Source: a virus
UHGV virus genome: UHGV-0072754
Length of the DNA stretch: 38,035 nt
Direction: 5' to 3' (one strand)
The notes below the pieces were generated by a model. It was not told where the DNA came from. It saw nothing but the letters and a program-made list of their open reading frames with translations, and did not search any database. The first letter of the stretch is position 1. The number at the start of each line of letters is the position of its first letter. The position numbers and the translations under genes are program-made. Shown piece by piece: positions 2,998 through 38,035 of this stretch.

Positions 2998-3693
2998 CTA
3001 GCCGTGCCGTTTAAAGGATTGCGACTGGCTTATTAAAACCTTTCCATAAATGTAGAATCTATGCTCGTTATCTTTTGTGATACTCCATTCCCGATATTTT
3101 GGATTGTCAGAGATAACAAGAAGCTGGTCAGGAATCATCTGGAGCCGTTTTACGTATATTTTTCCATCAAAACCAAACACATATATACCATCGCCATCAA
3201 ATTCATTTATGTTGACGTCAACAAAAATGAGGTCTCCTGGCTCGATGGTTGACGCCATACTGTCACCACGAACGTTAATAACTTTAACGCCAGAAGATGA
3301 CCTGCCTCCAAACATAGTTAATGCCTGATCATTGCTGTATTCAATAGCATGTATGACATCAATAACATCACTGCTCTGTATGTGTCCTGCTCCGGCGCTT
3401 GCGCTCACATCAAGTACCTCGACTCTATAAACATCACCAATGCTACGTGATGATGAATCACTTTCACTGTTTAAATATACAGTAGCCTCATTTTCTGCCG
3501 AGGTAAATAGGTCAGGGACTTTTACGCTTAAAGCGTGAGCAAGTCGGTTAAGTGTTTGTTCTGAAAACTGCTTTTGCTTGCCTGTTTCCAGGCGGGAAAT
3601 GTTGGCAGCATCAACCCCCACAGTTTCAGCAAGCTCTGCGATTTTCATGTTCTTCGCGAGGCGAAGTTGTCTGATGCGAGATCCTATATTCAT
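2998..3693 (-). CDS. CI-like prophage repressor, HTH N-domain plus S24 LexA-like autopeptidase C-domain (231 aa)
   Basis: HTH (IGSRIRQLRLAKNMKIAELAETVGVDAANISRLETGKQ); S24 motifs VRGDSMASTIEPGDLIFVD and GKIYVKRL (Ser/Lys dyad); AG in linker; start ATG 3693 with almost no SD (leaderless-type, as lambda cI from pRM). Confidence 0.8.
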   Translation of the reverse strand: MNIGSRIRQLRLAKNMKIAELAETVGVDAANISRLETGKQKQFSEQTLNRLAHALSVKVPDLFTSAENEATVYLNSESDSSSRSIGDVYRVEVLDVSASAGAGHIQSSDVIDVIHAIEYSNDQALTMFGGRSSSGVKVINVRGDSMASTIEPGDLIFVDVNINEFDGDGIYVFGFDGKIYVKRLQMIPDQLLVISDNPKYREWSITKDNEHRFYIYGKVLISQSQSFKRHG

Positions 3694-33721: not shown

Positions 33722-35056
33722 ATGTCGGCAGGAACCATTACCCTGACAAACGGGTCCGCTATTGTTGGCGGTGCCGGAACCTCATTCGCAACCGAACTCT
33801 CCGGAGGTGATTTCATTGTTTCGACTGTGGGCGGTGTGCCCTACACGCTGCCGGTGAAAACGGTCGACAATAATACCCAGGTGACGCTGGTCAGCAACTT
33901 CACCGGGCCAACACAATCCGGCGCTGCCTGGTCAGCCGTTCCCCGCGTTGCGCTGAACATGGTAACTGCTGCGCTGGTGGCACAAAGTGCAGAAGCGCTG
34001 CGTGGACTGAATTACGACAAAAAGAACTGGCAAAGTATTTTTTCTGGAAACGGCAATGTAACAGTGACTTTGCCGAATGGGACGAAATGGACGGGACCAG
34101 CATGGAATGGCATTGCCACTACTCTCTCAGGCAAGGCGGCAAAAGGTGCAAACGATGACATTACCTCGCTAAGCGGGCTGACTACAGCGCTAAGTATTTC
34201 ACAGGGAGGGACTGGTGATAAAACTGCCGCTGGCGCTCGCAAAAACCTCGGTCTGGGAACTTCTGCAACGAAAAACACAGGAACAACGAGCAATGATGTC
34301 ATGCAGCCAGGCATGTTTGGGCTTGGTCGTCCGGATGGGGCATTAATATTCAACACAACGAGCCAGGATGATCTTCTTGTTGGATTGACAGGGTATGGGC
34401 TTACGGTTCTTCGAAATAATGCACAGATACCAGAGCCATGGAATATATGGAACTATTCACCGACAATATTTGCCCGTGCAGGTGATACGTATAGCCTTTT
34501 TTCAATGCCTTTTCAGTCATCTGGAAAAGTACGTATTTTGGGTGGCGCTGCAGGATCAGGTTGGAATCACAGCAGGATATTATACGATGATAAAAACACA
34601 GTCGTGGATAGCAATGGCTTTATAAAGAAGGCATCCCCGGTCGTCAAAATCTTCACTGATGGTAAGTATGAAACTAACGACGAATCAGAAGGCGTCACGG
34701 TCACTCGTCTGGATGTCGGGCAATATCTTATTGAAGGCTGTAAAGCACTCAATTCAGACGCTGCATGGGGAGGTATCGACGGAGGGTTTGAGATTCCCAC
34801 AGACAGGAATAAGCAACCGCTTATATGGCTGGACTACGAGGTTAACGCAGATGGCTCTGTGCTGGTAAAAACCTATCACCGCGAACATCCTTCTGCGCCA
34901 GCATTTGCCAGGAATGAGCGTGATGGATTGGCAGATGGCGAGCCGGTTGACATCCCGGCTGACCAGTTCGTCAGCGTTCGTGTAGAAATGCCAGCTGACA
35001 GCATCTGGAATAAGAAACAAGCGGAAGAGGCTTTAAAGCAGGAACAGGGCTCGTAA
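33722..35056 (+). CDS. Side tail fibre protein (444 aa)
   Basis: Conserved fibre N-terminus MSAGTITLTNGSAIVGGAGTSFATELSGGDFIV; Gly/Thr-rich shaft; AT-richer distal part. Confidence 0.75.
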   Translation: MSAGTITLTNGSAIVGGAGTSFATELSGGDFIVSTVGGVPYTLPVKTVDNNTQVTLVSNFTGPTQSGAAWSAVPRVALNMVTAALVAQSAEALRGLNYDKKNWQSIFSGNGNVTVTLPNGTKWTGPAWNGIATTLSGKAAKGANDDITSLSGLTTALSISQGGTGDKTAAGARKNLGLGTSATKNTGTTSNDVMQPGMFGLGRPDGALIFNTTSQDDLLVGLTGYGLTVLRNNAQIPEPWNIWNYSPTIFARAGDTYSLFSMPFQSSGKVRILGGAAGSGWNHSRILYDDKNTVVDSNGFIKKASPVVKIFTDGKYETNDESEGVTVTRLDVGQYLIEGCKALNSDAAWGGIDGGFEIPTDRNKQPLIWLDYEVNADGSVLVKTYHREHPSAPAFARNERDGLADGEPVDIPADQFVSVRVEMPADSIWNKKQAEEALKQEQGS

Positions 35057-35096
35057 AAAAAACCGCCGCCATTTTTCGTAAGAATGAGCGGCGGTT
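35054..35096 (-). terminator. Terminator for the leftward DinI-like gene
   Basis: On minus strand: 8-bp stem ACCGCCGC/GCGGCGGT with 18-nt loop followed by U-run. Confidence 0.45.
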
Positions 35097-35150
35097 GATT
35101 GCTCAGAGTTCATGCCCAAACAAACGTAGGGAATATTACCTGAACAAGAT

Positions 35151-35417
35151 TTACAGGCCAACCTGGCGAACGGTCGGGAACTCAGAAACCAGCCACATAT
35201 CGGACTCTTCAAACATTTCCTCCAGCATGCGGTTCAGTTTTTCCCGATCGCTTTTGCTGGCATCGCTATTCAGGCCGTTTGCCTGCATCGGCTTCACCTT
35301 CACTTCGGCATCAGGGAAAATCTGGTGCACCCGCTTCTTCAACTCGGCCAGTATGATCTCTCTGGCCCCTTCGAGCCCCTCTACATTTCGCTTGTCATAA
35401 ACCAACTCAACGAACAT
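35151..35417 (-). CDS. DinI-like damage-inducible protein (88 aa)
   Basis: C-terminus EEMFEESDMWLVSE matches the DinI signature (E. coli DinI ends ...ETWESADDWFVSE); GGAGAG SD; LexA box in promoter. Confidence 0.75.
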   Translation of the reverse strand: MFVELVYDKRNVEGLEGAREIILAELKKRVHQIFPDAEVKVKPMQANGLNSDASKSDREKLNRMLEEMFEESDMWLVSEFPTVRQVGL

Positions 35418-35460
35418 CACTCTCCATCCTTGCTGACTTGATCTGGTGAAACAAAAATAC

Positions 35461-35480
35461 TACTGTATATGCATACAGTC
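35461..35480. promoter_or_regulatory. LexA box (SOS operator) between divergent genes
   Basis: TACTGTATATGCATACAGTC, perfect CTGT-N8-ACAG palindrome; on minus strand it sits in the spacer of TTGACT-N17-TATTTT. Confidence 0.75.
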
Positions 35481-35503
35481 AATAATCAAGTGAGGGTGCT
35501 GCT

Positions 35504-35743
35504 ATGCCTCGCCAATATGATATTCACGCAGCTTTTTTAGCCTCTATAGAACAGAATCCAAAGGGCTACCTTTGCCTAAAAACAAACAAATTCATCAATA
35601 ATTTGCGCGAGAAGAACTGGCATTTCAGCCAGGCAGACGCTAACGCATGGATTGAGAGATACCAGCCTGATTTTGCTGATAAGACGACGGATGGCAGTGA
35701 TAACCGTTACTGGATCTTGCGAAATATGGGGAGGGTATTCTGA
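35504..35743 (+). CDS. Hypothetical protein (79 aa), first gene of LexA-box-proximal operon
   Basis: GAGGG SD; 24 nt downstream of the LexA box; ATGA-coupled to next gene. Confidence 0.5.
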   Translation: MPRQYDIHAAFLASIEQNPKGYLCLKTNKFINNLREKNWHFSQADANAWIERYQPDFADKTTDGSDNRYWILRNMGRVF

Positions 35744-36063
35744 TGGGCTTTCCTTCACCAGCAATGGATTACCAGGAACAACGGTTAACCATCGATCTGT
35801 TATGCGGAATTGATGGAAACTGCAGGGTAATAGAAACGTCATGCGGTTGGGCTGTCATTAACGTTGCCATGAGGCCAGAGCAGGGAGATACGCTACTGGT
35901 AAGAATGGATAACAGGAACGAGTTTGCAAAGCTATACGGGGCGGCATTGATAACTGAAGATGGTGAAGCGATAGAAGGCGACGCGCTGGATGACGTGGAG
36001 GTTTTTGGCGTGCTAACGCATAGTCTTAACCGGGTTGGTAATGATGACTGCCCGGCAATTTAA
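35743..36063 (+). CDS. UmuD'-like protein lacking the Ser/Lys catalytic dyad (106 aa)
   Basis: N-terminus MGFPSPAMDYQEQR matches UmuD residues 25-38 (GFPSPAADYVEQR) and C-terminus DVEVFGVLTHSL matches DTLDVFGVVIHV; no GDSM motif. Confidence 0.55.
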   Translation: MGFPSPAMDYQEQRLTIDLLCGIDGNCRVIETSCGWAVINVAMRPEQGDTLLVRMDNRNEFAKLYGAALITEDGEAIEGDALDDVEVFGVLTHSLNRVGNDDCPAI

Positions 36064-36115
36064 AGCAGGGTTCAACCATCATTTCATCATCGTTTCGCCA
36101 TCATGGTTTACGGGA

Positions 36116-36146
36116 ACAAAAAACCAGCCTCTTACGGCTGGTTTTC
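36116..36146. terminator. Bidirectional-type terminator adjacent to tRNA-Pro fragment
   Basis: A-run, CCAGCC-tcttac-GGCTGG, T-run. Confidence 0.55.
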
Positions 36147-36156
36147 AAAGTGTTTT

Positions 36157-36205
36157 TGGTCGGCACGAGAGGATTTGAACCTCCGACCCCCGACACCCCA
36201 TGATG
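36157..36205 (-). other. tRNA-Pro(GGG) 3' fragment (~47 nt, anticodon loop to CCA); relic attachment-site candidate
   Basis: Minus-strand sequence TCATGGGGTGTCGGGGGTCGGAGGTTCAAATCCTCTCGTGCCGACCA matches the 3' part of E. coli proL as recalled; no 5' half present. Confidence 0.65.
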
Positions 36206-36211
36206 GTGACC

Positions 36212-36625
36212 TTACTTAACGTAAGTACCGCAAGTATTGCATTTATACTTACCGGCAAAACGAAATTGACCGTTTACTGCGCTCATTGAAGACATTTTCT
36301 TTTCTGAACTTTCATAGCATTTGGGACAAAAAGGGCCATTAGGCTTTCCTTCAATTTCATTAGCCCGCCAGTAAACTGCTTCACGGAAAACAAGCTCATC
36401 AGAAGCGTCCAGTTTTCCTTGCAATTCTGTAACCTTGCGCTTCAGTTCATACATCTCCAATTGCGTATCAGCCAATTCGATTTTTGCTTCTGATAAGGCG
36501 CTGTAAAGATCACTGATCTTTAACCTCATCTCGGCATCATTGTATGCTCCAGAGGCGTTTTTAATGTCTTTGGCTAAATCAAATGCGGTTTTCAGTGCGG
36601 TTAAACCTGTGACGATGTCTGCCAT
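36212..36625 (-). CDS. Hypothetical coiled-coil protein with C-terminal zinc-ribbon (137 aa)
   Basis: AAGAGGG SD; CPKC-x17-CNTC; low GC; sits between two tRNA fragments. Confidence 0.55.
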   Translation of the reverse strand: MADIVTGLTALKTAFDLAKDIKNASGAYNDAEMRLKISDLYSALSEAKIELADTQLEMYELKRKVTELQGKLDASDELVFREAVYWRANEIEGKPNGPFCPKCYESSEKKMSSMSAVNGQFRFAGKYKCNTCGTYVK

Positions 36626-36840
36626 AGTACCCTCTTATATTCAGAAAAATGATCTTCAAAACAACGAGTTTACATCCAGCGAAAGATTTTTTTTGTGAAT
36701 AAAATCAAACCAATTTCAGGCTCAACCATTCGCCATTGTGACTGTAGGATAACCGTAAACCATTGATTCAATTGATGTTAAAATTATGAATTAATGGCGA
36801 ACAATAAACATATGTATTTGATTTTTATAGAAAACACGCG

Positions 36841-36897
36841 TGATTTAAAATCCCTCGGCGTTCGCGCTGTGTGGGTTCAAGTCCCACTCCGGCTACC
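36841..36897 (+). other. tRNA-Leu(UAA) 3' fragment (57 nt); candidate prophage attR core
   Basis: GATTTAAAATCCCTCGGCGTTCGCGCTGTGTGGGTTCAAGTCCCACTCCGGCTACCA matches the leuZ-type tRNA-Leu 3' part from anticodon loop to CCA; upstream 30 nt are AT-rich non-tRNA sequence. Confidence 0.7.
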
Positions 36898-36937
36898 ATG
36901 GGAAACAAAGAATAATCAAAGCAATAAGCAGTGTCGT

Positions 36938-36962
36938 GAAACCACCGAAAGGTGGTTTTTTT
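36938..36962 (+). terminator. Intrinsic terminator of the host tRNA locus
   Basis: CCACC-gaaa-GGTGG then TTTTTTTT. Confidence 0.6.
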
Positions 36963-37200
36963 GTGCCTCTGGCTTAGCGCGAAGTGAGCGCATCTCATCG
37001 TCATCACGATCGTGCTGTGCCCGGAAATTTGCTGCCATACCAGAACGTTAAGCCTAACTCTCTAATATCAAGCCCGGAAAGCAGGGCGATTGTCAGCTAA
37101 CCTGCAACCAATCTTAAACAAATATTTCACTCGCCAGACACAGGTTGCCGCCGCTGATAAACTGGTTGGTATCCACCCTGGAGAGCGGAAGGTTATTGTC

Positions 37201-37878
37201 ATGCAATATGAAGAACAGCAGCTTATCAACGGCCTTTTCGAGCGTCTTAAACAGGCCGGACAACAAAACAGCAAACGTGATGCAGATGCAGAGCGTCAGA
37301 TCGCTGAATTTGTCAGACAGCAGCCTGCGGCCCCCTACTATATGGCGCAGTCGATTTTGATTCAGGAAACGGCGCTGAAACGTCTGCAGGCCCGGGTTCA
37401 GGAGCTTGAAAGCGAATTAGCCGCGCAAAAAAGCAAACCCTCGACGGGCGGCAGTTTCCTCGGCGGCCTGTTTGGTGGCGGGAAAAGTAACCCGCAGCCT
37501 GACAACAGCTGGAATGCCCAGCCGCAACAGCCACCGGCGCAGGATTACTCTCGGGCGCCAGCGCCAGCTACTCGCGGCGGCGGTTTTATGGCTGGCGCGC
37601 TCCAGACAGCCGCTGGCGTGGCCGGTGGCATCGCGCTTGCCGAGATGCTTACCAGCATGTTCCATCAGTCGCGGCCGGAAGAGATCGTGAACATCATCGA
37701 AGAACCGACAATGCCCGTCGGTGGTGGACCGTTTGTCGGTAATCAATACGGCGACGTTAATAACGTCTCTGACACCCGTTTCCTCAACCAGAACGATCCG
37801 TTCGGCAGTAATAACGACATCTGGCAGAACGACGATGTAGATGACGACTACAGCAATGACGACGACAGTTTTATTTAA
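37201..37878 (+). CDS. Host-side hypothetical protein, Gly-rich centre and Asp-rich C-terminus (225 aa from ATG 37201)
   Basis: Track ORF begins at TTG 37090; first ATG with plausible SD at 37201; GC content and codon use differ from the AT-rich islet. Confidence 0.45.
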   Translation: MQYEEQQLINGLFERLKQAGQQNSKRDADAERQIAEFVRQQPAAPYYMAQSILIQETALKRLQARVQELESELAAQKSKPSTGGSFLGGLFGGGKSNPQPDNSWNAQPQQPPAQDYSRAPAPATRGGGFMAGALQTAAGVAGGIALAEMLTSMFHQSRPEEIVNIIEEPTMPVGGGPFVGNQYGDVNNVSDTRFLNQNDPFGSNNDIWQNDDVDDDYSNDDDSFI

Positions 37879-38035
37879 CGACGTTATCGTGAAACTACCG
37901 AAATGAAGTGAACCCCGAAAGTTGGGTATCCAACGATTAGGGGTTTTGCGTTTCTGAATCAAAAAAACCTTTGAGGCTAAGCCTGAAGGCTCATAAATCA
38001 CATTCTTTTTACTATTTTTCTTACTAACAAACCTG

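Follow-up and report, generated by a model that had tools for sequence, protein, structure and literature searches.

A candidate LexA operator between a dinI-like gene and a divergent operon encoding a shortened HumD homologue in a lambdoid prophage

Organization and distribution of the module

We have described here a gene module in a lambdoid prophage represented by a 38,035-nucleotide stretch of viral DNA (UHGV-0072754; hereafter the window). The window carries a CI-type repressor gene (2998-3693, minus strand) encoding HTH_3 and Peptidase_S24 domains, homologues of cro and cII, and late genes ending with the tail-fibre genes (33722-35056), after which the module follows near the prophage end; its position beside the tail-fibre genes had been claimed in an earlier note on this DNA, and that placement is correct. 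A DinI-family gene coding for 88 residues is transcribed leftward (35151..35417, minus strand), and a 79-residue protein with a predicted winged-helix fold (35504..35743, plus strand; PHROG 3893) and a 106-residue HumD/UmuD'-like protein (35743..36063, plus strand; PHROG 3469), which we call mini-HumD, are encoded rightward. The 79-aa and 106-aa reading frames overlap by one base within the sequence TGATG (35741-35745), and a LexA-like palindrome (35461-35480) lies between the dinI-like start codon (ATG 35417) and that of the 79-aa gene (ATG 35504). All three module genes are under purifying selection, with a dN/dS of 0.06 for the dinI-like gene.

Both transcripts have predicted intrinsic terminators. 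That of dinI (35053..35096, minus strand) is a hairpin followed by U8 (fold -20.3 kcal/mol, z -3.9), and read on the plus strand the same hairpin follows the tail-fibre gene (-24.5 kcal/mol, z -5.3). The operon terminator (36120..36150, plus strand) consists of a CCAGCC/GGCUGG hairpin and then a U-tract (-21.9 kcal/mol, z -3.2), and it is kept in the E. coli and Gifsy-2 copies too. A search of positions 35000-38035 against Rfam for structured RNA gave only one sub-threshold match. Beyond the operon terminator, positions 36157..36207 (minus strand) align with the 3' part of an intact tRNA-Pro beside the same module in E. coli ECONIH4 and then diverge, and we read this fragment as a fossil attachment-site core that travels with the module; there is no complete tRNA in the window.

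The same module occupies the same place in phages mEp390, HK140, HK225, and Flotzy, where its genes are annotated as 'DinI', 'hypothetical', and 'UmuD-like', and a few E. coli chromosomes carry it as well, adjoining tRNA-Pro. A LexA site is not among the features annotated around the module in those phage and E. coli records, and we found no paper on the module. Relatives of the 79-aa protein are common, with 388 matches in IMG/VR and further matches in 27 species-representative genomes, and the module resides in prophages of Enterobacter, Escherichia, Klebsiella, Cronobacter, and their relatives.

The predicted operator and its two overlapping promoters

The palindrome at 35461-35480 reads TACTGTATATGCATACAGTC, is common to both promoters, and is assigned to neither strand. 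The earlier note had reported a CTGT-N8-ACAG box between the leftward DinI-like gene and the rightward two-gene operon, and had called it perfect; the box is present there and conserved, and the adjective holds for the 16-nt palindromic core (16/16) but not for the classical full 20-nt LexA consensus TACTGTATATATATACAGTA, to which there are three mismatches (17/20). The annotated P1 LexA site TACTGTATAAATGAACAGTA and the Gifsy-2 dinI box TACTGTGTTTATATACAGTG likewise have three mismatches to that consensus, and the Gifsy-2 box is required for regulation (Lemire 2011, PMC3121763). In the pattern TACTGTATAT-NN-ATACAGTA the site has a single mismatch, and 0.02 chance matches are expected at three or fewer mismatches.

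The behavior of this site in related prophages was followed in 27 loci from species-representative genomes and 80 from IMG/VR, each encoding a relative of the 79-aa protein, which together gave 85 distinct 120-nt upstream regions. The strict CTGT-N8-ACAG box is present in 76 of these, 32-42 nt before the 79-aa start codon, a one-base variant in three, and none in the remaining six; over all of the fetched sequence strict boxes occur at 0.24 per kb, and nearly all of them are these upstream sites. Fixed half-sites flank eight central bases that vary (ATATGCAT, ATATACAT, ATGCATGT, ATATAAAA, and others), which is the signature of a protein-binding palindrome and not of recent common descent. A second conserved island in the alignment is CTTGATC, and of the 79 regions with a box, 76 have TTGA[TC][CA] ahead of TACTGT, with a spacing of 17 nt in 67 cases and 18 nt in nine. 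Both islands are retained in loci that lack dinI (L010-L028), where the rest of the upstream DNA cannot be aligned, and the arrangement of box and -35 element recurs at 50% protein identity in Klebsiella phage RothD and at 31% in Cronobacter phage phiES15. For CTGT-N8-ACAG alone, 0.44 occurrences are expected per window and two are present in these 38 kb, such that a chance match, or a relic without any regulatory role, deserves consideration. However, with 76 of the 85 distinct loci keeping position, half-sites, and -35 spacing, to a protein identity as low as 31%, and with flanks and central bases diverging around fixed half-sites, we consider this explanation very improbable and have rejected it on the conservation data.

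The leftward promoter, PdinI (35454..35482, minus strand), has a -35 element TTGACT (35482-35477) and a -10 element TATTTT (35459-35454) separated by a 17-nt spacer. It was found by a promoter scan with 9/12 matches, which thus recovers the minus-strand TTGACT-N17-TATTTT promoter, with the box in its spacer, that had been proposed previously. Its elements, AGTCAAT and AAAATA on the plus strand, are kept in the aligned dinI-bearing loci and differ where dinI is absent. The rightward promoter, P79 (35438..35466, plus strand), does not appear in the earlier note; it has a -35 element TTGATC (35438-35443), a 17-nt spacer, and a -10 element TACTGT (35461-35466), and is conserved together with the box even in the dinI-less loci. 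P79 is weak relative to the consensus (7/12) and was missed by the promoter scan, and the evidence for it is comparative throughout. On that evidence TACTGT, which makes up the left half of the box, is also the predicted -10 element of the rightward promoter, because the half-sites are fixed and TTGATC is conserved 17-18 nt upstream. A Shine-Dalgarno sequence GAGGG (35492-35496, plus strand) can be read 7 nt before the 79-aa ATG, and a G-rich block at this position is conserved in the upstream alignment.

The geometry of these elements is compact. At P79 the operator forms the -10 element and reaches over the expected start site (~35473), and at PdinI, with an expected start at ~35447, it takes up the spacer and reaches the -35 element. 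The two core promoters interdigitate, with each -35 element lying beyond the predicted start of the other and the predicted starts ~26 bp apart, and therefore a single LexA dimer should block both; RNA polymerase, for its part, can presumably occupy only one of the two promoters at a time. The site is a consensus palindrome that overlaps core promoter elements and is conserved at orthologous positions despite diverging non-coding flanks, and by all comparative criteria at hand 35461-35480 is a real and functional SOS operator. LexA binding and DNA-damage inducibility of the module are predicted from it.

The encoded proteins and their possible roles

The 88-aa protein belongs to the DinI family, matching Pfam PF06183 with an E-value of 1.3e-22 and 80.4 bits (cut-off 24.2) and falling in PHROG 189, 'RecA filament binding protein DinI'. 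It is not an orthologue of chromosomal DinI by the NCBIfam equivalog PRK10597, against which it scores 40.2 bits with a cut-off of 111, and is best described as a prophage MsgA/DinI-like paralogue. Aligned with what we take to be the E. coli DinI sequence, it is 38% identical, and the similarity includes the acidic C-terminal helix (LEEMFEESDMWLVSE versus LQETWESADDWFVSE), by which the family binds RecA filaments.

The second product of the operon, the 106-aa protein, is by profile comparison a full-length homologue of P1 HumD (98.4%), in agreement with the earlier suggestion of a UmuD'-like product. It has an S24 beta-fold most similar to UmuD', and it begins at the equivalent of UmuD Gly25, with M-GFPSPAMDYQEQR aligning with UmuD 25-GFPSPAADYVEQR, and so has none of the N-terminal 24 residues. 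The GFPSPAxDY arm is invariant in the mini-HumD family, the extended arm MGFPSPAxDYxE and the C-terminal strand VxGVxTH are invariant or nearly so, and the C-terminal DDCPxI is held in common with HumD. It is nonetheless a distinct form, assigned to a separate PHROG (3469 versus 811) and 23 residues shorter than HumD, with ~11 residues missing around Ser60 and ~6 more later. The Ser60/Lys97 catalytic dyad is absent, as the loop with Ser60 is missing and family members vary at the Lys position; this dyad is dispensable once UmuD has been cleaved. The protein scores 34.6 bits against the NCBIfam HumD equivalog NF051876, which requires 120, with residues 1-60 alone aligned; no Pfam match, including Peptidase_S24, was found at E <= 0.1, and the predicted model is moderately confident (pLDDT 66.5). 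Because of the sub-threshold HumD score, the missing residues, and the moderate model, the protein may no longer act with UmuC as UmuD' does, or may do so differently. We also asked whether the protein could be a copy of the C-terminal domain of the resident CI, and rejected this (hhalign probability 2.6%); by these comparisons it is of the HumD lineage, not the CI lineage, and appears to share only its fold with the resident repressor.

The 79-aa protein received no functional assignment from any library searched. It is always coupled to a UmuD'-type gene, and in nearly all of ~100 related loci the UmuD'-like match begins at a constant offset after it; identical 79-aa proteins are found with different downstream partners, and 22 loci have a complete 129-aa HumD gene in the downstream position, of which the E. 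coli copy that was compared is 71% identical to P1 HumD. A BFVD fold search returned as its only match the query's own orthologue, and PADLOC gave no anti-phage defence match for any of four proteins tested. Two candidate identities were rejected. In a tblastn search P1 was not among the best 40 of 47 phage records matching the 79-aa protein, and Lxr is the product of a 190-aa divergent gene, which together argue against homology with P1 Lxr; nor is there similarity to the candidate GftA ORF, as would be expected for a Gifsy-type antirepressor.

Several known SOS-regulated systems resemble the module in part. In P1, one annotated LexA site serves the two divergent genes lxr and humD, as the operator appears to do here, and both P1 and N15 have a pre-cleaved UmuD' homologue behind a LexA box; N15 gene 26, which is UmuD-like, lies right after a tail-fibre gene with its own box TACTGTATAAAAAAACAGTT upstream. 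P1 HumD was reportedly found by McLenigan et al. in 1999 (ref. 78 of PMC4713147) to be a functional UmuD' homologue, able to form active Pol V with UmuC and to support SOS mutagenesis. The divergent partner in P1 is lxr, whereas here it is a dinI-like gene; in P1 and N15 humD has no 79-aa gene, whereas here that gene separates the operator from the UmuD'-like gene, to which it is translationally coupled; and the UmuD'-like protein itself departs from P1 HumD in its shortening by 23 residues, its missing Ser60 loop, and its score below the HumD family threshold. The dinI homologues of Gifsy-1, -2, and -3 are LexA-controlled (PMC3121763), with 14-23-fold induction of the Gifsy prophage dinI genes (PMC8072944). 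Deleting dinI non-polarly leaves Gifsy induction visibly unchanged (PMC3121763). In the Gifsy-2 dinI operon, TTGAAT-N17-TACTGT and a box give the same promoter layout as in P79. In Gifsy, however, dinI heads a unidirectional operon of the early region and is followed by the antirepressor (dinI-antirepressor-irsA), whereas here it stands alone, divergent, and at the late end, the genes that share its operator have no relationship to the candidate GftA ORF, and the resident repressor can be cleaved. The host umuDC and dinI genes have the same class of LexA operator and encode members of the same families, whose targets are RecA filaments and Pol V, but the module has no umuC partner nearby, its UmuD-type protein needs no RecA*-mediated activation, and its DinI is a divergent paralogue below the equivalog cut-off. 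The 186 tum gene and the split tum-dinI genes of PSP3 and Fels-2 likewise combine a LexA-controlled DinI-like sequence with a small effector (PMC3121763), but there the antirepressor is fused to or followed by DinI on one transcript, whereas here DinI is divergent and the effectors are a winged-helix protein and a UmuD'-like protein. The Acinetobacter UmuDAb-DdrR pair, a UmuD-family protein with a small dedicated partner, is similar by analogy only (PMC11332147). Because LexA-controlled phage humD and dinI genes are already documented, the LexA box alone is ordinary, and to judge from these parallels the module works like the P1, N15 gp26, and Gifsy precedents. New with respect to them, as far as the comparison reaches, are the divergent pairing of dinI with a humD-type gene, the constant 79-aa partner, and the shortened HumD.

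From the anatomy and conservation of the locus we infer LexA binding, co-induction, and the biochemical roles of the products, and we think it probable that one LexA dimer controls both divergent promoters and that the SOS response releases the DinI-like protein together with the 79-aa/106-aa pair, with the operon supplying a UmuD'-type subunit. A LexA dimer at 35461-35480 would repress two overlapping divergent sigma-70 promoters, and RecA*, by triggering LexA self-cleavage, would free both together. The products would then be a DinI-like protein that binds RecA filaments and the coupled pair of the 79-aa protein and a 106-aa protein that is in effect already 'cleaved'. To judge from the homology of its second product with P1 HumD, what the operon most likely provides is a UmuD'-type subunit that is ready for use and would feed host UmuC and RecA* transactions during SOS without awaiting UmuD cleavage, and meanwhile DinI would modulate the same RecA filaments.

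Several less likely roles for the 79-aa and 106-aa proteins were also considered. One is that mini-HumD is a decoy and not an activator of translesion synthesis, heterodimerizing with host UmuD or UmuD' (or occupying RecA* or UmuC), and acting with DinI to damp mutagenesis or RecA*-dependent cleavage. DinI inhibits UmuD cleavage, which can occur in trans, and UmuD associates preferentially with UmuD' in heterodimers that are degraded; a protein that is shorter overall and without its active-site loop, yet retains the arm and the C-terminal strand, could be understood in this way, as could co-regulation with the DinI-like protein from one operator. However, the homology to functional HumD is full-length and includes the C-terminal DDCPxI, UmuD' needs no catalytic dyad after cleavage, and HumD and the mini form interchange at one position behind identical 79-aa genes, an interchangeability that suggests the same role, and we regard a decoy as unlikely. 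A similarly unlikely configuration is that an SOS-induced device of two proteins, the 79-aa protein and the catalytically gutted mini-HumD, has a function of its own and is more than a UmuD' substitute, either as a modulator of RecA* or an S24 protease, with the GFPSPAxDY arm as a product mimic, or as a split LexA-like module in which the winged helix and the S24 domain are divided between two coupled genes. Were this so, then together with the DinI-like protein and the LexA promoter that may lie inside cI (see below), the prophage would have layered, LexA-timed control of induction and of host mutagenesis.

The two remaining alternatives center on the 79-aa protein. Its winged helix could make it an SOS-induced DNA-binding regulator of other phage or host promoters, with the UmuD'-like gene merely on the same transcript, and we find this rather improbable. 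A winged helix could equally serve as a protein-binding module, and the 79-aa protein, by itself or in concert with its 106-aa partner, could be a LexA-controlled antirepressor following the logic of Tum, GfoA, or AntC, acting on the repressor of this or another prophage and thereby coupling induction between prophages. That the module may tune induction or couple to other prophages had been suggested in the earlier note, and we found nothing that ties it to either role. Small LexA-controlled phage proteins beside a dinI homologue do have this role in the Gifsy dinI-antirepressor operons and, with Tum, in phage 186 (PMC3121763), and the lack of a function from any library searched leaves room for it. 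Against this, the 79-aa protein shows no sequence similarity to the candidate GftA ORF, the known antirepressor with which it was compared; a UmuD'-type gene invariably accompanies its gene, unlike known antirepressors, and the partners behind identical 79-aa proteins differ. Moreover, antirepressors of this class act on non-cleavable cognate repressors, and the resident repressor is of the CI type, HTH_3 plus Peptidase_S24 (74 bits) with a SASA/G cleavage motif; being cleavable, it does not need an antirepressor. We consider an antirepressor role highly doubtful.

The favored reading, in which the operator times the release of a DinI-like protein and a UmuD'-type subunit, implies that with LexA-timed accessory genes a prophage would act on the host RecA filament and error-prone polymerase just when it is deciding to leave. 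The module is widespread and therefore could affect SOS mutagenesis, and hence how antibiotic resistance evolves, in lysogens that encounter quinolones or comparable drugs. Two uncharacterized and testable protein families are also defined, the 79-aa winged-helix partner and the minimal HumD, which together would show which parts of UmuD' are retained when catalysis is dispensable.

A second LexA-like box within cI

The window's only other site of this kind, TACTGTATATTTAAACAGTG (3484..3465, minus strand), lies inside the cI gene at codons 70-76, which encode the linker between the HTH and S24 domains. We note that the module had been described earlier as separate from the cI-type repressor; this is correct in that a separate CI gene with HTH and Peptidase_S24 domains is present, but needs qualifying because the cI gene contains this second conserved LexA box. 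We found nothing on the cI-internal box in the literature.

Over 56 distinct cI genes (87-100% amino acid identity) the half-sites of the cI box are essentially invariant, with one of the 56 departing at each, and the center varies along with the residues it encodes (TVYLNS, TVCINS, TVYIDS, TVYKYS, and others). A box is found at the same position of cI in the Stx2a-converting phage WGPS2 (TACTGTATATAAAAACAGTA), Salmonella phage 118970_sal3, and Cronobacter phage ENT47670 (71%, 73%, and 54% identity, respectively), and is absent in more distant CI proteins. The windows of lowest synonymous diversity in cI are codons 70-80, which hold the box, 90-96, and 61-67 (permutation p <= 1e-5). Codons 61-64 include TTTACC, 17 nt upstream of TACTGT, a promoter design as in P79, and codons 90-96 contain an in-frame GAGG-N8-GTG just before the SASA/G cleavage motif, although the GTG is lost in more distant box-bearing cI genes. 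An antisense promoter at the box was considered and rejected, as the stretch that would hold its -35 element, cI codons 77-86, varies more than any other part of the gene.

Taken on these patterns, the cI box looks like an SOS-controlled internal promoter. A terminator lies immediately 3' of cI, and such a promoter could thus express only the C-terminal part of CI without its DNA-binding part, a product that could plausibly serve as a built-in dominant-negative. As a feature, the cI-internal box may be more novel than the operator at 35461-35480.

A LexA box within the repressor gene

In addition to the LexA box shared by the dinI-like gene and the 79-aa/106-aa operon, the window contains a second box, TACTGTATATTTAAACAGTG, at 3465-3484 on the minus strand, which is a strong match and lies in the linker-coding part of the CI-type repressor gene (cI, 2998-3693, minus strand). 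Across 56 distinct cI genes the half-sites are near-invariant, with only one gene deviating at each; the centre of the box, together with the residues encoded there, differs among the same genes. The equivalent position in cI also has a box in the Stx2a phage WGPS2, Salmonella phage 118970_sal3, and Cronobacter phage ENT47670.

Along cI, synonymous variation has its gene-wide minima at the LexA box, at an upstream TTTACC situated 17 nt ahead of TACTGT, and at an in-frame GAGG-N8-GTG at codons 90-96, and a terminator lies directly 3' of the gene. Conservation of the box, the three synonymous minima, and the terminator together suggest that the box marks a candidate SOS-derepressed promoter internal to cI, the product of which would be the CI C-terminal domain only. 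A literature search found no report of a LexA box within cI.

tRNA fragments and a possible origin of the cassette

Downstream of the module there is a 3' fragment of a tRNA-Pro gene (36157-36207, minus strand), and approximately 640 bp beyond it a second 3' fragment (36837-36900, plus strand), from tRNA-Leu(UAA), the tRNA encoded by E. coli leuZ; no complete tRNA was found within the 38,035-nt window. Between the two fragments is a 137-aa open reading frame (36212-36625, minus strand) with a coiled-coil/zinc-ribbon-like product, for which all Pfam matches are sub-threshold. The tRNA-Leu(UAA) fragment matches a tRNA-like stretch inside the annotated attP region of phage mEp390 and is probably the real attR. 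In that case the tRNA-Pro fragment looks like a fossil att core that travelled together with the dinI/79-aa/106-aa cassette out of a phage integrating at proL.

At the right end of Gifsy-2 (L202), a stretch without annotated features contains a dinI/msgA-like sequence (45340-45527, minus strand) that resembles the dinI-like gene of the window at the DNA level and has a LexA-like box, AACTGTTTGTATATACAGTA, ahead of it at 45544-45563. A tRNA-Pro-like fragment is located at approximately 44260-44330, accompanied by the terminator seen in the window. The 79-aa and 106-aa genes are absent.

Rearrangements within and beside the module

In three viral contigs (L053, L070, and L080) unrelated sequence takes the place of the LexA box's left half and of all the DNA that precedes it. 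The junction, GAAGACCC|ATATGTATACAGTCAAT, which is about 40-50 nt ahead of the 79-aa gene, marks a rearrangement breakpoint that splits the operator in its middle and removes both the -35 motif and dinI.

At the other end of the 79-aa gene, mini-HumD and full HumD are exchanged through recombination at or near their junction with it, and the two forms have in common the MGFPSPAxDY-coding sequence at the gene junction. We observe 79-aa genes that are 100% identical and are followed by either the 106-aa mini-HumD or the full 129-aa HumD (L031-L033 and other loci).

On the chromosome of E. coli ECONIH4 (L193) the annotation lists the 79-aa gene (1879-2118) as a pseudogene interrupted by an internal stop, while its two companions, dinI and the 106-aa gene, remain intact; just upstream are a recombinase gene of the invertase type and inverted tail-fibre assembly genes. 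In the window, the convergent tail-fibre (plus strand) and dinI-like (minus strand) genes have in common a bidirectional terminator formed by a single hairpin at 35053-35096, with a good U-tract on the dinI side only.
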